64,000 nucleotides of DNA from Promethearchaeota archaeon (GTDB lineage Archaea; Asgardarchaeota; Lokiarchaeia; Sigyniarchaeales; SOKP01): assembly GCA_048939995.1 (NCBI GenBank), contig JBHLOY010000002.1, positions 224,001 through 288,000 on the forward strand, in the 5' to 3' direction. The translations under genes were made by a program, and so were the position numbers. Under the pieces are notes generated by a model that did not search any database, was not told where the DNA came from, and worked only from the letters and a program-made list of their open reading frames with translations. Shown one piece after another: positions 1 to 12,478 of this stretch (position 1 is the stretch's first letter; each line of letters opens with the position of its first letter).

Positions 1-686
1 ATATATACATCACCATCATTAGTATAAAGGGACCAATTGCAATTTTGCGTGTATTCCACATCATAACTTCTTACTTTTATATCCCCTGTGTTTTGAATAA
101 TTCCAGAAATATTTCCTTCTAGAATACAATAAAAGAAGTCATATTGAATATTACCTTTCATCAAATTGGTTATGATATTTCCAACTGAGACCCCAAGAGG
201 AATAGTTGCTTTAGAGCTTCCTCTAATATCAACCATAGTATTGATATCATAAAGTACATCAGCTTTAAGTGCTACGATTATATCAACATTTTTTATCAAA
301 GATAAAATATCACCTTGCTTTATGCCTTTTTTTAACTCCATTGTAAAATTTACAATAGTGCTTGTATTTTGCCAAAGGATATCGAAATAATCTATATGCG
401 ATTTTCCAACTAAACCTCGACCAATCATTTCAATATTTATATCAATTTTTGCACAATAACTTATTGGATCTGTTATATATTCAATTTCAACTTCTCCTAT
501 ATCGATATCAATATTCAGTTCATTCAAAAATGAAGGTGAGCTAGAATTGTAATAGAATTGAAGAGATTCATCTATTCTGCCATAAGATGAGAGACTTATT
601 GAAAAAATAACAATGGGCGTCGAAAAAATGATAATTAAACTGAATATAAGCATTATAATGATAATTCTAATATCCTTCCTTACCAT
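1..686 (-). CDS. Membrane-anchored extracellular beta-rich protein (DUF4097/adhesin-like), runs off the window edge; paralog of 10418..11467
   Basis: Not in the ORF track. Manual translation from ATG at 686 gives MVRKDIRIIIIMLIFSLIIIF...GEVEIEYITDPISYCAKIDINIEMIG...IPLGVSVGNIITNLMKGNIQYDF, open to position 1 and collinear with GNVEIRYIDPPVDYYVLIDVNIALIG...IPYGVSFRDLLTNVSNGNILYNF of 10418..11467. Confidence 0.8.
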   Translation of the reverse strand, partial: MVRKDIRIIIIMLIFSLIIIFSTPIVIFSISLSSYGRIDESLQFYYNSSSPSFLNELNIDIDIGEVEIEYITDPISYCAKIDINIEMIGRGLVGKSHIDYFDILWQNTSTIVNFTMELKKGIKQGDILSLIKNVDIIVALKADVLYDINTMVDIRGSSKATIPLGVSVGNIITNLMKGNIQYDFFYCILEGNISGIIQNTGDIKVRSYDVEYTQNCNWSLYTNDGDVY

Positions 687-802
687 TGTTAAATCTTTCC
701 AAGAGTAGATAACAAAATTACAAATAATGATATAGGTGAGAATACTATTTAAACCAATCCGTAAAATGCCTTGCTAAAGCGGGTTTTAGTATACTTATAA
801 TA

Positions 803-843
803 TTCGAACTTTGAGCGAAGTTTAGAAGCTATTTCTAAAAATA
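803..843 (+). promoter_or_regulatory. 41-bp conserved motif, copy 1 (dyad TTCGAA-N13-TTAGAA + TCTAAAAATA)
   Basis: TTCGAACTTTGAGCGAAGTTTAGAAGCTATTTCTAAAAATA aligns without gaps to copies at 5875-5915(-), 7482-7522 and 11588-11628. Confidence 0.75.
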
Positions 844-1047
844 GATACCATGTTTAGTTAAACCATTGTCTAAAGTTTTTGTGTGTTACAATGTGTTTCT
901 TTGTTTTGCTAAAATATTGTAAAAGACCCTACCAATTAATCATTCTTTTTTTTTAGTATTTTTTCTTGAGCATAATTTTTTTATATACATAACCCTTATA
1001 AGCTAATTATTAGAATACTATTATTGTGGTGATTCCACCCAATTCTC

Positions 1048-2049
1048 TTGATTAATTTTGATCTTATTGAACGTTTTTTTTCGTCTATTGCAATAGTAGT
1101 AATAATTTTTTGTTTTATATTTTATTTTTCTCAAGGGCGTAAGAAAGAGGTTCTACATGAAAAAATTTTGATGTATAGTTTTGCAAGTTTTTGGCTCAGT
1201 ATTTCTTTAGCAAGAATATTTTATTATTTTTCTGACATTTTTTTAGAGGGAACTTACTCAGGTGATTTAAGCACACTTATTGAATCATATGATCTCTTAA
1301 ATTATATTATTCTTTACTTTTATCTATATTCTCATATATATATTTTAATAAGTATTATAGCATTAAGTGTTATGTTTATATGGTTTTCAATAAAGTCAAA
1401 AAAAGAATTTCAGCTAGTTTCCTCAGTAGTAGCCATTGGATTTACAATATTTTTAATAGGATGGGTTTTTGAAACGACGGCATTAAAGCAATTAAACCTT
1501 ATACCTCCAGCATTACCATCTATTTTTATAATAGTAGGAACCATAATTGCAACGATACCTCTAATTGTGGATATTGAGTTTTTTTCAAGCAAATTAATTA
1601 ATTGGTTAGTTTTAATTTCAATTGTTTTGATTTTACTTTTTTTTAGTTTAACCATTTTTACGAATCTCCCATTAGTACTTTTAAGTCAGATTATAATCTT
1701 AATTTCAACCTCTGTTTTAATTATGGTGATCATTTTTGTGGCATTTTACATAATCAAGAGAATTAAAGTATCAGAAGTTCAGGAAATAGTTCCAAAGGAG
1801 GAACTTAAAGATTTTATAAAGACTTTTATGAAGCCTGCTACCATTACAATCGAGGAAATTCAATTATATAAAGAGAAAGGATTATGTTTGGTGTGTAAGA
1901 GTAAAGTCACACGATTAAATTATGTCTGTCCCAAATGCTATGCATTATATTGTTTAAAATGCTCAAGAGCATTAACTAATTTAGAAAATAGTTGTTGGGT
2001 CTGTGAAACCCCCTTTGATGAATCTAAACCTATGAAAAAGTCTAAATAG
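1048..2049 (+). CDS. Multi-pass (~7 TM) membrane protein with C-terminal C4C4 RING-like zinc finger; candidate E3 ligase
   Basis: About seven hydrophobic segments, then CLVC-x10-CPKC-x4-CLKC-x10-CWVC; lies upstream of the JAMM/E1/E2 genes; TTG start. Confidence 0.6.
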   Translation: MINFDLIERFFSSIAIVVIIFCFIFYFSQGRKKEVLHEKILMYSFASFWLSISLARIFYYFSDIFLEGTYSGDLSTLIESYDLLNYIILYFYLYSHIYILISIIALSVMFIWFSIKSKKEFQLVSSVVAIGFTIFLIGWVFETTALKQLNLIPPALPSIFIIVGTIIATIPLIVDIEFFSSKLINWLVLISIVLILLFFSLTIFTNLPLVLLSQIIILISTSVLIMVIIFVAFYIIKRIKVSEVQEIVPKEELKDFIKTFMKPATITIEEIQLYKEKGLCLVCKSKVTRLNYVCPKCYALYCLKCSRALTNLENSCWVCETPFDESKPMKKSK

Positions 2050-2074
2050 AATAATTAATAGGAAGGTAAAGCTT

Positions 2075-2284
2075 ATGATTGAATTATTAATATTGCTGCT
2101 TCTAATATTTTTAGCAATCCCTTATATTATATTGTCTTTTATAACATTCTGGGTATATAAAGATGCAAAAAAAAGAGATATGAATGTATTTGCTTGGATT
2201 TTGGTAATTTGGTTAATACCATTCTTTATTGGGTTGGTCATTTATTTAAAGATTAGAATACAATATTCTGTCACGAGATTATAA
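2075..2284 (+). CDS. Small 2-TM membrane protein (PLDc_N-like)
   Basis: Two hydrophobic helices separated by WVYKDAKKR; purine-rich GGAAGG upstream. Confidence 0.7.
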   Translation: MIELLILLLLIFLAIPYIILSFITFWVYKDAKKRDMNVFAWILVIWLIPFFIGLVIYLKIRIQYSVTRL

Positions 2285-2303
2285 TATTTTCATAATTTCT
2301 AAT

Positions 2304-2450
2304 TTACTTACATTCTTTGGAATCTTGTTCAATAAAAAATTTTAAGACTTTATCATTTGGAGGGCGATGTTCTGGAATTTTTTTTGCTTCAATTTTCAAA
2401 AATCTTAACTCTTCACTATTGTAATTATGGGTTTTGCTTTTTTTAGTCAC
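2304..2450 (-). CDS. Possible 48-aa charged small protein divergent from the GTPase gene
   Basis: Manual translation from GTG at 2450: MTKKSKTHNYNSEELRFLKIEAKKIPEHRPPNDKVLKFFIEQDSKECK*; fills the gap between genes; no family recognised. Confidence 0.35.
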   Translation of the reverse strand: MTKKSKTHNYNSEELRFLKIEAKKIPEHRPPNDKVLKFFIEQDSKECK

Positions 2451-2549
2451 CTGATTTCACTCAAAATTTCCGTTAAATTATACTTATATTAATTAATGTT
2501 AATAACTATAATAAAATTAATTACATTTATGTAAGCAATATTAATTTCG

Positions 2550-3566
2550 ATGTTAAAGCCTCCTCAAATCTTATTTACCGGAGAAAATGGTGTTGGTAAA
2601 ACAACTATCTTGAATTTATTTCCAGAAGATATTATTTTAGAATTAGACGATAACTTTAATGAAATTTTTCAAAAGCAAGTTAATATTACTGGATTCAAAG
2701 GTATAGAACATTGTATTTTAAGAGAAATTGATTTAAGAGAATTAGTAGACAATTTTTTTTCTTTTCAAAAACTACTACAGGCTCTTGATATCATTCTCAT
2801 TGTAACTGATTCAACTGAACGAAATATTAAATATACTTATAATTTATTTTCTGAATTGAAATATAAATTACCTAAAATTGATTTTTATATAATTGCTAAT
2901 TTTCAAGACAGAAAGTCAATTTCAATGCCCATAGAAAAAATTGAATCTATATTAAAAGAGAAGGTTTTTGGATATTCGGCCATCCAAGAGGATTCAAAAG
3001 ATTCTATGACTGAAATTATTAAAGAGATTTTAGAAATTTCAATTATTAAAAAACAAGGAAAAAAGCTTTCATTTGATAAAATTGATTACAATACAATTTG
3101 GTCAGACATCGAAGAAGCAAGATTGTTGGAAAAGAAAGGAGACCATTATGCGGCATCAAAAAAATTCTCAATTGCTGGATCTAAATTTAAAATACTAAAT
3201 TCAAATGAGGAAAAAGAAGAATTTAAAGCGTTATACAATTTATGTAAGGCTTGGGAGTGTATAGAATTAGCTGAAGAATATGAGGATGTTTCGAAGTTTG
3301 CTGAAGCTGTGAAATTTTTTGATCAAGCAATTGAATCTCTATATGATGAGAAATTAAAATTTTTAGTATCCGCTAATTTAGCACATTGTGAAGCTTTAAA
3401 ATTAGGAATGGAGTCAGATACATCAGATCAACTACATATTAAAGAAAAATTATATTTAGAAATAATCGATTTAATTAACAAAGCAGTTAATTTATATAAA
3501 AGAGGAGGTTTTGAAAAAGAAGCGGAATTTGCTTTAACTACCTTGAATAAATTAAAGAGCCTTTAA
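2550..3566 (+). CDS. Divergent Ras/Arf-superfamily small GTPase domain fused to a TPR-like helical domain
   Basis: G1 GENGVGKT, hydrophobic strand IILIVTD, G4-like ANFQD, G5-like YSA; no DxxG; C-terminal alanine-rich helical repeats. Confidence 0.75.
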   Translation: MLKPPQILFTGENGVGKTTILNLFPEDIILELDDNFNEIFQKQVNITGFKGIEHCILREIDLRELVDNFFSFQKLLQALDIILIVTDSTERNIKYTYNLFSELKYKLPKIDFYIIANFQDRKSISMPIEKIESILKEKVFGYSAIQEDSKDSMTEIIKEILEISIIKKQGKKLSFDKIDYNTIWSDIEEARLLEKKGDHYAASKKFSIAGSKFKILNSNEEKEEFKALYNLCKAWECIELAEEYEDVSKFAEAVKFFDQAIESLYDEKLKFLVSANLAHCEALKLGMESDTSDQLHIKEKLYLEIIDLINKAVNLYKRGGFEKEAEFALTTLNKLKSL

Positions 3567-3619
3567 TTGAGTAAATTTAAAATTTTAGTAAAATATCTTA
3601 AAACATTACAGGAATCAAA

Positions 3620-4114
3620 TTGACGTTATTCGAAAAAGATTTTCTATTTCCAGTATACATCGATAAAAATACTTTAAATCATATTGATGAATTATGCAAA
3701 AATTCTGATAGAGAACTTTTTGGCTATTTAATTGGTTTAATTTTAAAATGGAAAAAGAATAAATATATTATTATAAAAGAACAGATTTATATTAAAAATA
3801 CAGTTAGAAGTAATAAATTTAACACATCCCAAATTGAAGGAACTGCTGGAAAATACGAACAGGAATTTCAAAAGTTGAAACATAGTATGAGGAACGAGAA
3901 TTTACGAGTTGTAGGATGGTGGCATTCCCATATCAATTTAGGGTGCTTCTTATCCTTAACTGATATTCATACACAAGAATATTTTTTTCCTGAACCTTAC
4001 CAAGTTGCATTAGTAGTTGATCCTATTCGAGAGGAATACAAATTTTTTACATTAGATGCAGGCTCAAAAAAGAAATACAAAACGCTAAGTTATGCTATTA
4101 TATCTTCAACTTAA
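3620..4114 (+). CDS. JAB1/MPN+ (JAMM) metalloisopeptidase, Rpn11-like
   Basis: RELFGYLIG (catalytic Glu) and VVGWWHSHINLGCFLSLTD = HxH-x7-S-x2-D JAMM motif; ALVVDP. Confidence 0.92.
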   Translation: MTLFEKDFLFPVYIDKNTLNHIDELCKNSDRELFGYLIGLILKWKKNKYIIIKEQIYIKNTVRSNKFNTSQIEGTAGKYEQEFQKLKHSMRNENLRVVGWWHSHINLGCFLSLTDIHTQEYFFPEPYQVALVVDPIREEYKFFTLDAGSKKKYKTLSYAIISST

Positions 4115-4131
4115 CAATTTAGTTTATATCT

Positions 4132-5013
4132 ATGCGTAAGAAAGAAAATCAAGGAATTAAAGTGATTGGAACGGATTCCATAGATTCAGATAGATTCGAT
4201 CGCCAAAAGAGAATTATTGGTTGGGATCAAACTATTATTTCTAATGCGACAATTATGGTAATTGGTGCTGGAGCTACTGGAAATGAAGTTATAAAAAATT
4301 TAGCTTTAGTCGGAGTTGGAAAGATATTTTTAATTGATTATGATTTCATTGAAACTTCAAATTTAAGTCGTTGTGTGTTGTTTAACCCTAAAGTAGCAAA
4401 GGATAAAGAATACAAAGCAGATGTTATTAAAGATGTGTGTAGAGACTTAAATCCTGATGTCGAAGTTGTTTCAATTAAAAAAGACTTAAATTCAATAGAT
4501 AAAACTCTTTATAGCAAGTGTGATGTAATATGTTCTTGCTTAGATAATCTTGAAGCACGGATAGAAGCTAACAATTATGCATATTATAATCGAATTGCTT
4601 TTGTTGATTCTGGGATCGACGAATTTTTTGGTTCAGTTCAAGCAGTATATTCAGAAGTTGAAAATTCAGCTTGTTTGCAATGCGGTATATCAGAAAAGGA
4701 TTTGGATTTAATGTGGAAAAAATTTTCTTGCACTGGAGAGGAATTAAGGTCTGAAGAAGGTGAAACCACAAATAAAATAGCAACAATCATTACGACTACT
4801 TCAATAATAAGCGGTATTCAATCTCAGCAGGTTTTAAAATTTTTACTTGGAATTAAATATTATAAGGAAGATAAAAAATGGAATCCTTATATTGGAGCAC
4901 CATTGGTTGGTAAGCAATTAATTTATAATGGCCTAACAAACAGTTTCAACATTATTGATAAAATAAAAGATCCAAATTGTTGGACTTGCTCATACAAAAA
5001 ATCTAAGATTTAA
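4132..5013 (+). CDS. Ubiquitin-activating E1-like enzyme (ThiF/UBA family)
   Basis: DRFDRQ, GAGATG, D-x-D-x3-TSNLSR, LDNLEAR, Zn pairs CLQC and CWTC, candidate catalytic Cys in FSCTGE. Confidence 0.92.
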   Translation: MRKKENQGIKVIGTDSIDSDRFDRQKRIIGWDQTIISNATIMVIGAGATGNEVIKNLALVGVGKIFLIDYDFIETSNLSRCVLFNPKVAKDKEYKADVIKDVCRDLNPDVEVVSIKKDLNSIDKTLYSKCDVICSCLDNLEARIEANNYAYYNRIAFVDSGIDEFFGSVQAVYSEVENSACLQCGISEKDLDLMWKKFSCTGEELRSEEGETTNKIATIITTTSIISGIQSQQVLKFLLGIKYYKEDKKWNPYIGAPLVGKQLIYNGLTNSFNIIDKIKDPNCWTCSYKKSKI

Positions 5014-5030
5014 ATTAGGAGGAAATATGG

Positions 5031-5558
5031 ATGCCAGAATTACCCTTTGAGATATGGAAAGAAAGAGTAAATAATGAGATAAAGATCCTAAGAAATATTA
5101 GCCTCATTGAAAATAAATCTATAGCATGGCATGATAATAGTGTAGAATTATGGATTAATTTAAGTGCCTTTGGATTCGTTAAAAGAGAAATTGAAGGAGT
5201 TATCAATGTAAAACCTCAGATGAATCACCGAATTCTCATTAAAATAAATAGATCCTTTCCATATCCAGGAGGGATTGATTTTGCTTGGTATTCAGAAATA
5301 TTTCACCCAAATATCCATCCCATTGAATTAAAAGGATTGAAAACTATAGGCACAGGTTATATTTGTTTAAATATTTTAAGACAATGGACAAAATTATCAG
5401 ATTTGGAAACTACAGTTAAATCCCTTGAAAAATTAGTAGAGAATCCCAATCCAGAGGATCCTCTTCAATATGATATTTGTATTGAAGCTGCTGAATTCTT
5501 TAAAAGAAATTCAATTCAAGAACTTAAAAAGATTTATAAAAAAGAAAATTATATTTAA
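5031..5558 (+). CDS. Ubiquitin-conjugating E2-like enzyme (UBC fold)
   Basis: FPYP...IFHPNI...GYICLNILRQW (HPN motif, catalytic Cys, Trp), NPNPEDPL; AGGAGG RBS. Confidence 0.93.
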   Translation: MPELPFEIWKERVNNEIKILRNISLIENKSIAWHDNSVELWINLSAFGFVKREIEGVINVKPQMNHRILIKINRSFPYPGGIDFAWYSEIFHPNIHPIELKGLKTIGTGYICLNILRQWTKLSDLETTVKSLEKLVENPNPEDPLQYDICIEAAEFFKRNSIQELKKIYKKENYI

Positions 5559-5824
5559 GAATTAAAAAACAAACCTCCAATAACTTTTGTCCATAACATC
5601 AAAATATCATATTCTTTTAACCCAAATTTATGAATTGCCTCCCTAATTGATATTGCATTCGGTAATTCCTTTTCCTTATACACTAAAGCATAAGAACGTT
5701 GTTCTGAACTTATAAAACCCATATGTTTAACAACAATTTCTATAATACGCTCTATTATATGATGTTCCTTTACATCTAACTTTATTCTTTTGCCTGTTCT
5801 GGTATCTTCTATTGATAATTTCAT
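5555..5824 (-). CDS. Ubiquitin-like modifier precursor (GG at residues 83-84 followed by LFFNS)
   Basis: Aligns by eye with ubiquitin: TGKRIKLDV/TGKTITLEV, EQR/QQR, YKEKEL/FAGKQL, LMLWTKVIGG/LHLVLRLRGG; stop overlaps the E2 stop (convergent). Confidence 0.88.
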   Translation of the reverse strand: MKLSIEDTRTGKRIKLDVKEHHIIERIIEIVVKHMGFISSEQRSYALVYKEKELPNAISIREAIHKFGLKEYDILMLWTKVIGGLFFNS

Positions 5825-5874
5825 TTTTTTTTTTTAATTTTTCTTTTAAAGACAAATAAATTTATTCAACTAAT

Positions 5875-5915
5875 CATTTTTAGATTTGAGTTCGAAACTT
5901 TTCACAAAGTTCGAA
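5875..5915 (-). promoter_or_regulatory. 41-bp conserved motif, copy 2, ~50 bp upstream of the ubiquitin start
   Basis: Minus strand reads TTCGAACTTTGTGAAAAGTTTCGAACTCAAATCTAAAAATG (both TTCGAA half-sites perfect). Confidence 0.78.
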
Positions 5916-5922
5916 TTAGAGA

Positions 5923-7218
5923 TTATTCTTGTTCTTTCAACTTTTTATTAATTTCATCCAATATTTTATATTTTGGAAAATCTTTTAAAATTGAGGTTAA
6001 AATGGTTTTTTCTCTTTTTATTCTGTTATAATCCTCTAATTTTAGGTTAATTATATTTTGGAAAGCTAAACCCTTAAACTTGTCTACTAAATCATCTGAA
6101 ATTGTCTCTTTTTGATATTTCCCGAATAAGAAATTGATGTAATCTGGTACAAATTTCTTTAGAGGTGATTTTATATTTCTATCAAAGAGTTTATCAGAAA
6201 TATCATTTAAAATATTGTCTAATAAATCTACGGTTTGTGAATTTCTTTCTTCTTTAGAAATATCAGGTTGTAATCTTTTGAGATAACTAAACTTTAGAAT
6301 GTTCTCATCTATAATTAAATGCAACATTTTATCAATTTTGTCATCCTCTCGAAAATAATATACCACTTCATCATTAAGTCTTAAATTGAAAAATTTTGTA
6401 TCATATAAATCCTCTTCAGTAATCTTTTGCGTACAAAAAGTAAGTGTAGCTAGTTTAATATTATATTTAAGAGAAAAATTTTCTTGTGAAATATATTCTG
6501 GATATCGACTTGGATGATTTATAGAAAGAAATAATAATATTTTATAAAAATCTTCTTTTGATGGGAGTATATTCTCAATGAAGCTATAATTCAAATGATT
6601 GATTAAATCTAGAAATAAAATTTCAATTTGGCTATCTTCAACATTCTGCTCTTTAAGAAACCTTCTGACGTTTTCTTTGATACTTTCTATTTTATCTATT
6701 TCTTCTTCTAAAACTGATTGATAATCTAATTGGTATCTTTTCAGCATTTTATTATATCGTTCCTCACCTATTCTAGTGATTCTGTATTCCATGTTTTCAC
6801 TATCAACAAAACCTTTTTTCATTAAAAGATTTAAATATTTTGATAGAGAATTATGATTGAGAGAAAGAGGTTTTTCAATAAAATCTGACCACTTTAAATA
6901 GTCGTTATTAAATAACATCCACAAGATGATATGAGCATAATTTCTCTTGTTTAAAATGATCTCTGGAGGATATCTTAATTTTCTCTCAAATGAATCTTTA
7001 AATTTTAAATCTATATATCTTTTTTTACCTTCAGCAGTAGCTAGATAAACTCCTTTACTCTTTTTCTCAACATATCCGTTTGAAATTAATAATTTCATGT
7101 ATTTAGACAATGTAGCTAAGCTGATTTCTAACGGCTCATCTAAAAAGACAGACCAATTACATTCCTCATTATTATTAAGCATCCAGAGGATTATATATTC
7201 AAAATCTTTCTTCTCCAT
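5923..7218 (-). CDS. Tandem winged-helix (ArsR/MarR-like) DNA-binding protein with long helical C-terminus; probable regulator
   Basis: Two internal repeats IILWML-x-NN...W...PL...LSKY...L...G[YF]V...Y...T..G..RY. Confidence 0.8.
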   Translation of the reverse strand: MEKKDFEYIILWMLNNNEECNWSVFLDEPLEISLATLSKYMKLLISNGYVEKKSKGVYLATAEGKKRYIDLKFKDSFERKLRYPPEIILNKRNYAHIILWMLFNNDYLKWSDFIEKPLSLNHNSLSKYLNLLMKKGFVDSENMEYRITRIGEERYNKMLKRYQLDYQSVLEEEIDKIESIKENVRRFLKEQNVEDSQIEILFLDLINHLNYSFIENILPSKEDFYKILLFLSINHPSRYPEYISQENFSLKYNIKLATLTFCTQKITEEDLYDTKFFNLRLNDEVVYYFREDDKIDKMLHLIIDENILKFSYLKRLQPDISKEERNSQTVDLLDNILNDISDKLFDRNIKSPLKKFVPDYINFLFGKYQKETISDDLVDKFKGLAFQNIINLKLEDYNRIKREKTILTSILKDFPKYKILDEINKKLKEQE

Positions 7219-7427
7219 GCCTGATGGGTTAATTAAATCTTCTGGAGGATAATTGATTTTTTTAGCACAGATTTTATTTATACACCTATTATTATTTCTT
7301 TATTTTAATTTTCAATTAAATTTTGAGTAATCTCGCTTATATATAAGATATAACAAATATGTTTAAAAAATTTCATTTAAAAATAAAAATCCTCATATTC
7401 AATATTTTTTATTTAAATAACTCAAAC

Positions 7428-7452
7428 TTCGGATTATATGCAAAATTCCGAA
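7428..7452. promoter_or_regulatory. Dyad TTCGGA-N13-TCCGAA, variant of the motif, between the wHTH gene and 7596
   Basis: Perfect 6-bp inverted repeat with the same 13-bp spacer as the four 41-bp copies. Confidence 0.55.
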
Positions 7453-7481
7453 CTGTTTCTTGGAATAATAAGTGGAAGATA

Positions 7482-7522
7482 TTCTAAGTTCGCTAAAGGT
7501 TTCGAACTTAAATCTAAAAATA
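7482..7522 (+). promoter_or_regulatory. 41-bp conserved motif, copy 3
   Basis: TTCTAAGTTCGCTAAAGGTTTCGAACTTAAATCTAAAAATA. Confidence 0.7.
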
Positions 7523-7595
7523 AAGATTAAGCATAATAACCAATTGACACAAATTTGCCAAAAAAGAAAAAGAAAAAAAAAAAAGATGAAAAAAA

Positions 7596-8366
7596 ATGAA
7601 TAGAAATAACCTATCTAAATTGATTCTCTTAACCTTTCTGATGTTCGCTATTTTCAGTTTTATACCAGTAGTTGCAGCAAGCTCAGGTAATGCAACCAAA
7701 AGACCATTAGATGATTGGTTAGATCCGAATTACGCTGCTTTCCCGTGGGGCGAAGAAAATTGGGCTTTTTATGACTTTTGGAGCCCTTATTCTGGTTTAG
7801 TGACGAAGATGGGGTTACCTTGGCCTTTGGCTGGCTTCGGCCCATTTGTTAACGACATGATATACGAAAATAGTTTAGTAATAGGAGATACTATAATTGA
7901 TGGTAATATTAAAGAACGAGCATTAAACGATGGAACTGCTTTAATAACCCTGCAATTAAATGTGAAAAACGCTCCATGTTCAGTTTATGATTACTTCGAT
8001 TTTATTCTTTACTGTCTTGGGGCTGCTCCTTACCCTCAAGCCGTATTGGGAGATGGAATTGATGGGTATATCGATTATACCGTGTTAGTTAAATTTTATA
8101 TCCCTGAACCTGGAGCAGAGCTACCAAATGTATTTGATATGTGGTATTATTATGTCTCGATTAATATTCACGGTATTGGTTATGGAACATTAACAGAACG
8201 TGCAGTTGAGCTCGGTTTTGCCGAAACTGCTGGTGCACCAGGAATGGTAGAACTTCATCACATAGCCCTTTTTAAGCCTGATTTCAAAGAAACTCATCCT
8301 AAATATGATCCATTTTATGGTGATTTATGGCCAGTTGACTCCGTTGAAGTTTATGAATTGAGTTAG
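7596..8366 (+). CDS. Secreted hypothetical protein; paralog of 11681..12478
   Basis: Signal-peptide-like N-terminus; shared blocks RPLDDW, NVKNAP, HG-x-G-x-GT, K-x-DFK-x2-HP-x-Y, LW-x-VD. Confidence 0.85.
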   Translation: MNRNNLSKLILLTFLMFAIFSFIPVVAASSGNATKRPLDDWLDPNYAAFPWGEENWAFYDFWSPYSGLVTKMGLPWPLAGFGPFVNDMIYENSLVIGDTIIDGNIKERALNDGTALITLQLNVKNAPCSVYDYFDFILYCLGAAPYPQAVLGDGIDGYIDYTVLVKFYIPEPGAELPNVFDMWYYYVSINIHGIGYGTLTERAVELGFAETAGAPGMVELHHIALFKPDFKETHPKYDPFYGDLWPVDSVEVYELS

Positions 8367-8420
8367 AAGCAGATTAATGGAGAGAAATACCAAGTGAGGG
8401 TTGAAATTTTTAAATAATAA

Positions 8421-8508
8421 TATAGAACAAGGAGGAAAAAGATTAGAATAATGGCTTCTCGAATGACCACATCCAAACCACTATTCCTCCATTCTTTTTT
8501 TTTTTTTT
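8421..8508 (+). terminator. Stem (GGAGGAA/TTCCTCC) with long loop followed by T14; terminator or structured 3' UTR
   Basis: 8431-8437 complements 8484-8490; T-run 8495-8508; same layout at 12509-12594. Confidence 0.6.
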
Positions 8509-8643
8509 AAAATATTCTTTTTAATTTTTGCTTCTTTTTAGATTCTGATAAAATTATATCTTAAATCTGATTATCATAGACAGAAAAGTTTAAAAATAGA
8601 ATCAACTAATCTTCAAGTTATACATAAATGTGAATTCTATTAA

Positions 8644-10356
8644 ATGATTAAAATGATAGAAAAAGCTTCTTCTAAAAAAAGATTTCCTAATATCAAAGAA
8701 TTCAAGAAAATAATCATAGTTGGAGGGTCAATAATAAGCTTAGCGATAGTTGGGATTATAAGTGGAATTATTATTATGGGAGATATCCCGCAAGGAGGTA
8801 TTCTTAAAGTAGGTATAACTAAACCTATTGGAGAAATTGACCCTCTTATGTATAGCTTTTCTTCAGAAGAAATAGTAATTAATCATGTTACCGAGACGTT
8901 ATTTGATAATATTTATATAGGTGGTAAATCTCAAACTCTTCCTCATCTAGCATTAGATGGAAATTGGAGTTCGGACTACCTAAATTTCACATGCACACTT
9001 AGAAAGAATGTCATGTTCCATGACGGAACGCCATTTAATGCTGCAGCCGTTAAATGGAACTTCGATAGAATTCCTCAAATTATCGATCCATCACTTCCAG
9101 ATTGGTATTGGTGGGCTTACCTATTTCTTTTACCAGATGGGCGCTGGATTGTAAATAAAACTCTAGTCTTAGATTCCCATATTGTAAAATTTGTTTTAAA
9201 TGATGTTTTTGTACCTTTTCGAGAATTATTAACTCATAGTACTACAAGTATTTTATCACCATCATCAACCCCTGCGGATAAACCCCTAAATATACACATT
9301 GATAATTTAGTTGGAACCGGTCCTTTTATATATGATGGTTATGAACCTAATGTCAATATGTCATTATCTCCTAATCAGAATTACTGGGGAGCAAAACCTA
9401 AAATTGATGAGGTAATTTTAAAGTTTTATTCTCCAACTAATCGTACTAATCGTATTAATATTTTATGGAATGCGCTTTTAGCAGGAGAAATTCATATAGT
9501 AGACCGAGATTTTATTAAGTTTTTAATAATGTACTATCCAGACCGATCTATCGAACTCCTTAAAGGAGTTGCAGGAATTACAGTTCAACAAAAGCCTACT
9601 ATAAGCAATTATTATGTTTTTTTTTATCCTAAACTTGTTAATAGTACAATGAGAAAGGCAATATCTTATGCAATTAACTATTCTAATATACTTGAAATAG
9701 TTCCTAACTCTATAACAGCCAGATCCCCAATTCCAGAAGGTATCTCTTACTCTAACATTACTGGTATTGACATTCCTTATTATAACATTTCAAAGGCGAG
9801 ACAGATGTTAATTGACGAAGGTTGGCCTGGAACAGCGGGTTTAACGGCAAATGACAATATTACAGCAGGAAACGAATGGGAACAATTAGTAACTAATGGA
9901 TCCCCTCTTGCAATATATAATTTATCTTATTATACAGAGAATCCATACAATGAATTACCACCAATTCCTTTTCCAGAAAATCTTAAACAAATTGGAGTCA
10001 ATGTATCATGTCGATCAATTTGGAGTGGTGCTCCGTCTCAACTTGAAACATTAATGTGGATGTATGACTATAACGATCCACACACTGGTATTATGATGGA
10101 TTATCATTCAAAATGGACTTTATGGACCGACTTTAATGTTAGTGTATTAGATGAATTGATAGAAGAAGGAATTAAGGAGATAAACCCTGTTTTAAGAGAA
10201 GCGATATACTATAATATTCAAAAACTTATAATCGAGGAAATTTGTCCTGTTATATTTACTCTCTCTCCACGAAATTTAGATATATATGCATCAAATTTAA
10301 TGGACTGGCAAATTTATCCATTCAAAATAGTATTTAAAACAGTTCACTTCGTCTAA
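8644..10356 (+). CDS. ABC transporter substrate-binding protein, family 5 (DppA/OppA-like), membrane anchored
   Basis: N-terminal TM; ETLF, LRKNVMFHDGTPFNAAAVKWNFDR, VGTGPF, RKAISYAINY. Confidence 0.92.
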   Translation: MIKMIEKASSKKRFPNIKEFKKIIIVGGSIISLAIVGIISGIIIMGDIPQGGILKVGITKPIGEIDPLMYSFSSEEIVINHVTETLFDNIYIGGKSQTLPHLALDGNWSSDYLNFTCTLRKNVMFHDGTPFNAAAVKWNFDRIPQIIDPSLPDWYWWAYLFLLPDGRWIVNKTLVLDSHIVKFVLNDVFVPFRELLTHSTTSILSPSSTPADKPLNIHIDNLVGTGPFIYDGYEPNVNMSLSPNQNYWGAKPKIDEVILKFYSPTNRTNRINILWNALLAGEIHIVDRDFIKFLIMYYPDRSIELLKGVAGITVQQKPTISNYYVFFYPKLVNSTMRKAISYAINYSNILEIVPNSITARSPIPEGISYSNITGIDIPYYNISKARQMLIDEGWPGTAGLTANDNITAGNEWEQLVTNGSPLAIYNLSYYTENPYNELPPIPFPENLKQIGVNVSCRSIWSGAPSQLETLMWMYDYNDPHTGIMMDYHSKWTLWTDFNVSVLDELIEEGIKEINPVLREAIYYNIQKLIIEEICPVIFTLSPRNLDIYASNLMDWQIYPFKIVFKTVHFV

Positions 10357-10417
10357 TATATGCCAAGCACATTGGTCTAAAAAACCATAAAAAAATTAAA
10401 AAATTTTTAACATAAAT

Positions 10418-11467
10418 TTATTCAATATAGGGTATACTTGTCAGATCCATGTCAAAATTTCCCTCTAGGATTTCAAACCTGATATTGTAATAATACTTAA
10501 CGATGTTAAGTAGTAAATCATCTGATGTAAAATAAAAAATACCCTCATATGTAGTATGTGCAATACGATTGAAATCAAAACCCTTTACAAGCGGACAGAT
10601 CAGACCAGGAACCTGCAATACACAAGTAGGAAATCCACTTTTATCCATGAATTCCCCTCCGTAGGGAATTTCAAGCATTGCACCAATATCAGCGCTACTA
10701 TCCTCATAAAGAACAAATATCTCTCCATTATTAACTTTGAATATCCCTGTTATGTTAGCACCAATATCTCTATATTGAAGAACTTCAATATCTATATTAC
10801 CCTCTCTAATGTTTATGTCCCAACTACTATTTTGAGCATATTGTACATCATTTGACTTGAAAATTAAATTTCCATCATTTATATTTCCAATTATGTTTCC
10901 TTGAATTGAACAGTGCTCAAAATTATACAAAATATTTCCATTGGAGACGTTTGTTAATAAATCTCTAAAGGAAACGCCATAAGGAATAGTTATTTCAAAG
11001 TTTCCTTTAGTTAGATTGGTAATAATATCAAATACAATATCTTTTCTAATATTTACAACGATGCTTATTTCTTTCTTTAACCAATATAGTGGATTAAACC
11101 AATCATCTGATATTATCTCCATTCTAAAATCTACTGGAAAACTTGAATTGTTCCAAGAAATGTTTAAATAATCATTGTACGATTGACCTGCTAAATTTTC
11201 CCCAATCAAGGCAATATTTACGTCTATTAACACGTAATAATCAACTGGGGGATCAATATATCTTATTTCTACATTTCCCTCATCAGCGTTAATGTACAAC
11301 TTTTCAATAGATGCTGGTGAGCTTGGTTCATAAGTAAAAGAACAAGATTCGTAAATATGGTCATACAATGAAGACCTGAATGATAATAATTGGATTGGAA
11401 TAATTATTATAAGGGAACCCCATAAAATAACCAATATAGCTACTCCAATAACAATTTTTTTCGCCAT
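10418..11467 (-). CDS. Membrane-anchored extracellular beta-rich protein (DUF4097/adhesin-like)
   Basis: N-terminal TM; repeated GN[IFL]-x-[hydrophobic] strands; paralog of 1..686. Confidence 0.75.
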   Translation of the reverse strand: MAKKIVIGVAILVILWGSLIIIIPIQLLSFRSSLYDHIYESCSFTYEPSSPASIEKLYINADEGNVEIRYIDPPVDYYVLIDVNIALIGENLAGQSYNDYLNISWNNSSFPVDFRMEIISDDWFNPLYWLKKEISIVVNIRKDIVFDIITNLTKGNFEITIPYGVSFRDLLTNVSNGNILYNFEHCSIQGNIIGNINDGNLIFKSNDVQYAQNSSWDINIREGNIDIEVLQYRDIGANITGIFKVNNGEIFVLYEDSSADIGAMLEIPYGGEFMDKSGFPTCVLQVPGLICPLVKGFDFNRIAHTTYEGIFYFTSDDLLLNIVKYYYNIRFEILEGNFDMDLTSIPYIE

Positions 11468-11587
11468 TTTTAAATCTATTAATTACAAACAATTAATTCT
11501 ACAATCAATTAGATAAGGTAATTATCTATTTAAATTAATCCCTCAACACTTTTTTTTTTTGACCCTAAAACAGTACAAATTTTAAAA

Positions 11588-11628
11588 TTCGAACTTTGCG
11601 CGAAGTTTCAAAGTCAAATCTAAAAATA
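11588..11628 (+). promoter_or_regulatory. 41-bp conserved motif, copy 4, ~50 bp upstream of 11681
   Basis: TTCGAACTTTGCGCGAAGTTTCAAAGTCAAATCTAAAAATA. Confidence 0.78.
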
Positions 11629-11680: not shown

Positions 11681-12478
11681 ATGAACAAAACATATAGAGG
11701 ACTTTTATCAATAACATGTTTAGCAATTTTTGGGATTTTAATCATGGGCGCTATACCAGCAGTACAGGGAGCCTCTTCGATTCAAAGGCCACTTGATGAT
11801 TGGTTTTATGATGTCTTTGGTTTCGATATGAATTATCATGTAGGAGGTTGGGTTGATGGATATCAGGTAAGACCTCAAGGCATAGATTATGATACGACTA
11901 CTGATGAGTGGATCTATCAACCGATTTGGGAATGTACATATGATGGCTATATCCTTGATAGAGATATGCATGATGGCCGACATATGATTACAGTTAATAT
12001 TAACGTCAAAAATGCTCCAGTTATCGTTGCTCCACCTTTTGGGAGTGGAGGATACTATTGGGTCTTCCAAGGTACTATGAATTATAATTATGAATATAAA
12101 TTCATAGTAGATCTAGCAGAATGGGCTTGGTGGTTGATTTTTTTGGAATTTGATGATGATGGCTTTGATGAAAATGGAAATATCCTGTTACCTAGATGGG
12201 ATATACCTATGGTTTATGGCTCAATCTTCGGATTTGAATTCATTTCAGTGCATTTTCATGGCGAAGGAGAAGGAACAATAGTCAATTACTGGGATGAATC
12301 CTGGGTGGGAAATGGAGATCGTATTTGGGAACCAGATGAATCAGCAAAATTGAGTACCAATATGCTTGGACTTGTAAAGGATGATTTTAAACTAGATCAT
12401 CCCAATTATTGGCCCTCTGAATATTCTAGTATACCTTGGAGTGTATTATGGGCAGTTGACTTTGTAAAATTACATTAA
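11681..12478 (+). CDS. Secreted acidic/aromatic-rich hypothetical protein; paralog of 7596..8366
   Basis: Signal peptide ending AVQG/A; shared motif blocks with 7596..8366. Confidence 0.85.
   Translation: MNKTYRGLLSITCLAIFGILIMGAIPAVQGASSIQRPLDDWFYDVFGFDMNYHVGGWVDGYQVRPQGIDYDTTTDEWIYQPIWECTYDGYILDRDMHDGRHMITVNINVKNAPVIVAPPFGSGGYYWVFQGTMNYNYEYKFIVDLAEWAWWLIFLEFDDDGFDENGNILLPRWDIPMVYGSIFGFEFISVHFHGEGEGTIVNYWDESWVGNGDRIWEPDESAKLSTNMLGLVKDDFKLDHPNYWPSEYSSIPWSVLWAVDFVKLH

Follow-up and report, generated by a model that had tools for sequence, protein, structure and literature searches.

The ubiquitin-like modifier gene of this Loki-type Asgard archaeon is preceded by a 41-bp sequence module that recurs in front of genes for secreted proteins. 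This module and the gene of a multi-winged-helix protein next to it are the subject of our analysis. The stretch analysed, called the window, comprises 64,000 nucleotides (G000:C17:224001-288000) of the host assembly G000, which has a size of 3.75 Mb and 30.5% G+C. An operon on the plus strand (1048..5558) encodes, as assigned by domain matches, a multi-pass membrane RING protein (1048-2049), a small open reading frame (ORF), a P-loop/TPR protein, a JAB protein, an E1 (ThiF) and an E2, and has its own promoter at ~975-1040. Convergent with JAB-E1-E2 lies the ubiquitin-like gene (5555..5824, minus strand). Its 89-aa product shows weak similarity to ubiquitin/NEDD8 (E 0.0023) and carries a GG followed by five residues. 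Such a gene is present in 16 of the 42 genomes of the genus, and G000 holds this single copy. The gene of the 431-aa winged-helix protein, hereafter the regulator, follows at 5923..7218 (minus strand). Beyond it lie the genes of a secreted 256-aa protein with a hydrophobic N-terminus (7596..8366, plus strand), a family-5 solute-binding protein, an unknown membrane protein, a secreted 265-aa paralog of the 256-aa protein (11681..12478, plus strand; 23% identity, E 6e-12) and a histidine phosphatase. For the 256-aa protein, Pfam and NCBIfam returned no family and the ESM Atlas no usable match.

The original prediction, made from the letters alone, had listed four copies of the module, at 803 (+), 5915 (-), 7482 (+) and 11588 (+), each intergenic and oriented towards a downstream gene start. 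Our ORF map agrees with all four placements, including coordinates and strands. Copy 1 (803..843, +; 33.4 bits) lies 204 nt 5' of the RING start at 1048. Copy 2 (5875..5915, -; 34.1 bits) is the module of the ubiquitin-like gene; it begins 7 nt past the regulator stop codon and ends 50 nt before the ubiquitin ATG (5824, minus strand). Copy 3 (7482..7522, +; 25.8 bits) is more diverged, points away from the regulator gene and faces the start of the secreted 256-aa protein at 7596. Copy 4 (11588..11628, +; 35.0 bits) faces the 265-aa paralog at 11681. In the closely related genome G010, copy 3 is identical and copy 4 is present, with no counterpart of copy 4 seen in genomes more distant than G010.

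The first 25 bp of the module form an imperfect palindrome, the dyad, consisting of two TTCGAA-type hexamers 13 bp apart and conserved inner bases, which are partly asymmetric. The last 15 bp comprise an A-rich stretch resembling a B recognition element (BRE) and a TATA-like box. The copies are alike for ~42 bp, where the likeness ends sharply, and the flanks of paralogous copies are unrelated. In total, we collected 37 distinct instances, 26 with a box and 11 without. Among them the BRE/TATA-like part is conserved as strongly as the dyad. The fixed distance between dyad and TCTAAAAAT box that had been proposed turned out to be invariant in 26 of 26 distinct proximal instances: none has an insertion or deletion between the two parts, and the right half-site is always separated from the box by 6 bp. 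Each of the proximal modules that we mapped faces a gene start 35-121 nt away, or up to ~140 nt in L057.

The dyad is highly specific for this locus. Allowing up to three mismatches, the 25-bp pattern matches three times in the window compared to 0.00 matches expected from 100 shuffles. The perfect pattern TTCGRA-N13-TYCGAA occurs four times in the G000 genome, three of the four in this locus, and the same hexamers at spacers of 9-12 and 14-17 bp give 0-2 matches each. Scanning the whole assembly with up to five mismatches yielded six matches, three of them new, namely a dyad lacking the box at C17:220056, a complete module at C17:220154 and a weaker match on contig C37. The two sites on C17 are located 3.8 kb upstream of the window, and the C17:220154 module precedes the gene of a secreted right-handed beta-helix protein, which is followed by another solute-binding protein gene. 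A position weight matrix (PWM) of the dyad detected six sites at 25.8-35.0 bits, all within C17:220056-235628 (16 kb). The next site (22.4 bits) is the one on C37, located before the closest paralog of the regulator, and the background does not exceed 18.0 bits. Such a PWM scan had been proposed as a check; in this assembly it shows a motif confined to the locus, apart from the C37 site, rather than spread randomly or genome-wide. A genome-wide regulon was rejected, as the C37 paralog site is the only one outside the island in 3.75 Mb.

Among the 42 genomes of the genus, 11 contain the dyad pattern, whereas a reversed-pattern control gave 0-1 matches. The order regulator-module-ubiquitin was found in G000, G010, G018, G021, G043 (with a variant site), G045 and G054 and in the assemblies of the loci L053, L055 and L057, i.e., in every orthologous locus examined. 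The predicted common control of the ubiquitin-like gene and the secreted-protein genes is supported. The gap between regulator and module ranges from 7 to ~35 nt, and that between module and ubiquitin-like gene from 35 to 50 nt, reaching ~140 nt in L057. When ten of these regulator-ubiquitin spacers were aligned, conservation was confined to the module and the flanks had diverged. Orthologous sites are kept across species even where the regulators are only 60-72% identical, and no regulator ortholog without the motif was seen among the genomes searched. A scan of the metagenome collection for the exact pattern, blind to everything except the motif, returned six contigs, and six of six carry the regulator, the module and a ubiquitin-like gene.

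Two further targets are conserved between species. The beta-helix gene located after an AlaX-like gene is accompanied by a module in G010, G018, G021, G043, G047 and G054, and the divergent genes faced by orthologous copy-3 modules in other species encode secreted or NosD-like beta-helix proteins. On one ~22-kb stretch of the metagenome-assembled genome DZ2M.350 (L056 and L057, one contig), we observed two regulators that are 60-62% identical to the query, three ubiquitin-like genes and three RING modules; one of these ubiquitin-like genes has only a degenerate module (17.4 bits).

A fifth dyad with the same spacer had been reported at 7428-7452, and it is indeed present. This site (7428..7452), which lacks a TATA-like box, precedes copy 3 by 54 bp and the regulator ATG by ~210 bp; it matches TTCGRA-N13-TYCGAA perfectly, though its PWM score is 16.3 bits. 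Such a pair in the divergent promoter of the regulator, consisting of a distal dyad and a proximal module that faces the secreted gene, is conserved across species. The pair spacing is 54 bp in G000, G010, L053 (twice), L055 and L079 and 43/44 bp in L058 and L059, a shift of one helical turn. Strong dyads at one of these two offsets occur in L053, L055, L058, L059, L079 and L082. G054 and G021 have a lone dyad ~180 bp 5' of the regulator, which leaves the regulator itself as the only possible target there. The 7428-7452 dyad is likely a cooperative and/or autoregulatory site. The beta-helix promoter also has a distal dyad, located 98 bp from the proximal one. In L001:10056-10194 and L043:6179-6317 this distal dyad keeps a decayed box and resembles a former proximal module.

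Pfam assigned two helix-turn-helix families to the regulator, HTH_45 at 46.2 bits (cut-off 25.5) and HTH_34 at 30.3 bits (cut-off 27). An AlphaFold2 model with a mean pLDDT (predicted local distance difference test) of 84 shows two winged helix-turn-helix (wHTH) domains (residues 6-72 and 94-161), a long helix, a third winged-helix-like domain (196-290) and a helical C-terminal tail. The N-terminal tandem wHTH region is the best-conserved part among the orthologs. We compared residues 1-84 and 88-165 with every representative chain using VIA-align and obtained MarR, PadR, ArsR, BldR, RosR and Sso10a-2 at Z 10-11, with root-mean-square deviations of 2-3 A over 70-83 residues. Foldseek with the whole model found no match at E <=0.001; its top rows were multi-winged-helix proteins, e.g., RPC62 and SarS. 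A sequence search of solved structures with the regulator gave nothing at E <=1, and the NCBIfam models Sso10a, Sta1 and Lrs14 scored below their own cut-offs.

The N-terminal folds are those of MarR/PadR/ArsR regulators, including the archaeal BldR, RosR and Sso10a-type proteins, which also read palindromic operators with half-sites about two helical turns apart. However, members of these families carry one wHTH per chain and act as homodimers, whereas the regulator has two in tandem followed by ~270 more residues that include the third winged-helix-like domain. For this reason we file it as a relative by domain and not as a canonical member. Staphylococcus SarS, which joins two SarA/MarR-like domains in one chain, offers a parallel for a tandem wHTH that could work as a pseudo-dimer on a two-part site. 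Its structure 1p4x was among the top Foldseek rows (probability 1.00, E 5.8e-3), below the significance line, and SarS differs in being bacterial and in having no sequence similarity beyond the fold. The asymmetry of the inner bases of the dyad would suit two such non-identical reading heads.

Two other assignments of the regulator were tried. ESCRT-II proteins (Vps22/Vps25) are tandem winged-helix proteins whose genes often occur near Asgard ubiquitin genes, but such an identity gained no support: there was no EAP30 or Vps25 Pfam match at E <=0.01, and human ESCRT-II ranked 36 in Foldseek (E 0.23), the best structural matches being DNA-binding regulators. An RNPP-type peptide-sensing regulator does not fit either, since the 431-aa protein has no TPR match and its helix-turn-helix is of the winged-helix and not the XRE type.

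The regulator family has eight copies in G000, most of them longer. The closest paralog (46% identity) is the C37 copy, an 822-aa protein that on scanning showed a C-terminal TPR array. This paralog and its orthologs in G008 and G004 have a related dyad in their own upstream regions; no related dyads were found before the other six paralogs in G000. The C37 locus may represent a second circuit of the same type. At the C37 locus (L049:6398-8981; G000:C37:24398-26981) the dyad lies 157 nt 5' of the start of the 822-aa gene. The gene is flanked by a Hrq1/MrfA-type helicase gene, followed by genes for a Ras-family small GTPase and a 644-aa TPR protein.

The position of the box agrees with that of a promoter element. 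Its centre is located 55-58 nt before the starts of the ubiquitin-like gene and the 265-aa gene, and TATA-type hexamers peak genome-wide 52-60 nt upstream of starts. Using crude ORF calls, we found octamers of the AATTTAAA type to be the most position-enriched upstream words, and the box of the module deviates from them by one invariant C. In archaea the BRE is A-rich and adjacent to TATA (PMC7289017). Archaeal activators typically bind just 5' of the BRE at promoters with an off-consensus BRE or TATA, and repressors usually overlap BRE/TATA or sit downstream (PMC5512572). Judged from the sequence, the 41-bp element is likely a composite archaeal promoter with the box as its putative TATA element and the dyad as the operator of the 431-aa regulator, which probably activates the ubiquitin-like gene and the secreted genes. 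We infer the identity of the binder, the sign of regulation and the transcription start. Activation is favoured by the upstream position of the site, its rigid spacing and the conserved deviation of the box. Of the predicted activator site for the tandem-wHTH protein, the tie to the adjacent regulator is supported by synteny, the six of six metagenome contigs and the MarR/PadR folds, with activation as the more probable sign.

The two MarR/PadR-like wHTH domains would probably occupy the two half-sites of the dyad. Bound there, directly 5' of BRE/TATA, the regulator would most likely aid the loading of transcription factor B (TFB) and TATA-binding protein (TBP) and in this way activate transcription. 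The targets fired would be the ubiquitin-like gene, the divergent promoter region of the regulator itself, and genes of secreted proteins, beta-helix proteins among them. The second, TATA-less dyad found at two promoters would probably provide for cooperative binding and autoregulation. The circuit would be self-contained within a variable island, bounded by an AlaX-like gene on one side and by hexapeptide acyltransferase genes on the other.

Several observations weigh against this model. G044 and G047 have a module and no regulator ortholog was found in them. G044 has lost the island by deletion: just ~1 kb separates its AlaX-like gene from the acyltransferase genes, and what follows the module is a 53-aa signal-peptide remnant. 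G047 has a completeness of 92% and short contigs, with the module on a 9-kb contig. Most of the genomes bearing the system belong to one clade, and the co-occurrence counts are therefore not independent. The TATA/BRE consensus of G000 is crudely resolved, with only weak positional signals from crude ORF calls, so it is by inference that we call the box weak. Furthermore, a site abutting the BRE could equally block TFB and cause repression, and the regulator is short and has no recognisable sensor domain.

Repression by the same protein at the same site, with TFB/TBP blocked until a signal arrives or with a dual sign set by occupancy of the distal site, is possible but in our judgement unlikely. 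The right half-site stops 6 bp short of the box, the MarR/PadR-type proteins that match best in structure are mostly repressors, and a box just one base off the most enriched upstream word may be strong enough alone. However, sites upstream of the BRE are typical of activators, repressors usually acting from overlapping or downstream positions (PMC5512572); base-exact spacing in 26 instances fits a stereospecific contact better than occlusion, and the conserved off-consensus C fits a box that depends on an activator. The module could instead be read by another transcription factor, or by a specialised TFB/TBP paralog recognising an extended promoter, as its BRE/TATA-like part is as conserved as the dyad. 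This is improbable given that the regulator adjoins the motif in every locus, including all six blind metagenome matches, that a related dyad precedes the closest paralog of the regulator, and that TATA-less distal dyads exist, which a basal factor would not need.

A caveat attached to the four copies, that copies 1 and 4 may share ancestry by duplication, was justified and reaches further, since the C17:220056 copy is a positional homologue as well. All three lie 107-121 bp 5' of a divergent gene from one paralogous family, so they spread by segmental duplication. Together with the recent gain of copy 1 in a single genome, this could mean that the copies are inert relics, left by segmental duplication or by a small mobile repeat. 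Such an origin is highly improbable as an account of the module as a whole: orthologous sites persist with randomised flanks at the regulator divergence given above, the likeness stops sharply at the module edge, and the orientation is always towards a gene start. Moreover, the copies have no terminal repeats and no dispersed relatives elsewhere in G000, all of them lying in one 16-kb locus. We therefore rejected a relic, whether from duplication or from a mobile repeat resembling a miniature inverted-repeat transposable element, for the core sites and keep it as a possibility for copy 1. A hairpin formed by the dyad in RNA or DNA, for instance as terminator of the regulator gene or as leader structure, was suggested by the start of copy 2 only 7 nt past the regulator stop and by weak folding of the dyad (-3.5 to -6.8 kcal/mol). 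Nevertheless, most copies have no co-directional gene upstream, and archaeal termination proceeds via poly-U and not via hairpins (PMC7289017). In 31 distinct dyads many changes are one-sided, and compensatory change is absent from the ten outer pairs; only the innermost, variable pair has two cells of this kind. One-sided arm changes of this kind indicate an element read as double-stranded DNA, and we rejected the hairpin as next to impossible.

Copy 1 differs from the other copies, and the proposal that the RING gene belongs to the regulon did not survive as a conserved feature. This copy is found in G000 only; it is absent from G010, where the regulator is 94% identical, from G054, G045, G043 and L055, and from all other species examined. 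Apart from window positions 708-967, G000 and G010 align collinearly with 84-93% identity; this 260-bp segment contains copy 1 and takes the place of 83 bp in G010. At positions 93-760, the window is similar to a paralogous membrane-protein gene, namely to its 5' part together with the region upstream. Runs of T5, T4, T9, T6 and T7 occur within the 204 nt that separate copy 1 from the RING start, and poly-U stretches, not hairpins, terminate archaeal transcription (PMC7289017); the leaders after the other four copies (50-101 nt) are A-rich with no T-run of four or more. In addition, the RING gene has a conserved promoter and leader (~975-1045) that is present in four genomes and free of the dyad, which suggests that the RING gene has regulation of its own. 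Considering its restriction to G000, the replaced segment, the T-runs and the separate RING promoter, copy 1 may give rise to a short transcript, act on the divergent gene or have no activity.

The RING promoter and leader contain a T-rich TATA-like stretch, a conserved block of ~25 nt and the word GGTGATTCCA just before the start. The membrane-protein gene 5' of RING (window 3-686 and L001:13685-13999 versus L043:9801-10796) shows ~60% identity between G000 and G010, compared to ~90% for its neighbours. This gene was either replaced or is evolving rapidly, and copy 1 arrived with it.

Ubiquitin loci of two types occur in the clade. Type A combines a short RING gene with ubiquitin, E2, E1 and JAB and has neither regulator nor dyad (L062-L074); in most type A copies a word of the GAAATTCA type is found ~40 nt upstream of the ATG. 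In type B (L039, L041, L004, L005), the genes of the membrane RING protein, the small ORF and the P-loop/TPR protein converge with the regulated ubiquitin-like gene, and E1, E2 and JAB are often missing, so that this type would depend on type A in trans. Several genomes contain both types, and in G000, G010 and L055 they form one merged locus. The island that holds the system (G000:C17:216275-238156, i.e., window -7725 to 14156; L042:9025-11687) measures ~21 kb here, ~14 kb in G054 and ~1 kb in G044, and contains solute-binding proteins, secreted proteins, RING, ubiquitin and the regulator. A role in anti-phage defence was considered using the PADLOC models and rejected: only generic ThiF and JAB matches to CBASS-type models were obtained (E 3e-15 and 3e-6), with nothing for ubiquitin, E2, RING or the secreted proteins, and generic matches of this kind do not support a defence role.

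The proposed arrangement, a site directly 5' of BRE/TATA, resembles that of Ptr2 from Methanocaldococcus jannaschii, EarA from Methanococcus maripaludis and TFB-RF1 from Pyrococcus furiosus, whose promoters have an off-consensus BRE or TATA and multiple sites and which act by recruiting TBP or TFB (PMC5512572). In contrast to Ptr2, an Lrp/AsnC protein, and to EarA and TFB-RF1, which belong to other families, the regulator described here combines two wHTH domains of MarR/PadR type with a third winged-helix-like domain in its 431 residues, its activating role is putative, and its regulon includes a ubiquitin-like gene. The regulator is not a canonical member of these families, nor of the MarR/PadR or SarS type. 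TrmB/TrmBL1 of Thermococcales are likewise local regulators with a palindromic motif that control genes of extracellular solute-binding proteins, with the sign set by the position of the site relative to BRE/TATA. TrmB belongs to another family with another motif, its sugar-binding domain is not recognisable in our protein, and the TrmB regulons are not known to include a ubiquitin-like gene. The genes themselves recall the ubiquitin-E1-E2-RING-Rpn11 cluster of Caldiarchaeum subterraneum and the Asgard ubiquitin-ESCRT clusters, which comprise a ubiquitin-like protein with a C-terminal extension, E1, E2, a JAB/Rpn11-like protein and RING. Unlike in those descriptions, the modifier gene here stands apart as a convergent unit, with a regulated promoter of its own. 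The descriptions of the Caldiarchaeum and Asgard ubiquitin operons name no dedicated regulator or operator, and the word 'transcription' does not occur in the Asgard ubiquitin-ESCRT paper. Our search for literature on transcriptional control of archaeal ubiquitin genes found none.

The ubiquitin systems of Asgard archaea attract study as precursors of the eukaryotic system, and we know of nothing reported on the timing of their expression. That the module and regulator form a local, testable regulon is well supported. With the highly probable binding site of the regulator in front of the ubiquitin-like gene and secreted genes, ubiquitin appears to be switched together with surface proteins, and these genes adjoin a multi-pass membrane RING ligase, the P-loop/TPR protein and orphan peptide-type solute-binding proteins. 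It is a speculative and rather doubtful extension that ubiquitylation in this Asgard clade is an inducible, island-borne response and not a housekeeping function, in which one regulator switches on the only ubiquitin-like gene together with secreted beta-helix and other surface proteins. If it were true, this would be a prokaryotic circuit leading from an outside signal via a transcription factor to ubiquitin, and could represent signal-controlled ubiquitylation of membrane proteins at an early stage. The analysis offers a precise DNA site, a named candidate regulator and a defined set of targets, namely the modifier gene and secreted proteins; recombinant protein and synthetic DNA would suffice to test all of these without culture. 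The interest of the finding, which we rate as moderate, is that the expression logic of an Asgard ubiquitin system becomes open to direct testing. Of the two kinds of ubiquitin locus in the clade, one is wired to the regulator and one is not, and the single modifier gene of G000 belongs to the wired kind. Should transcript data bear this out, ubiquitylation in this organism would be conditional, narrowing the search for its substrates and its role.

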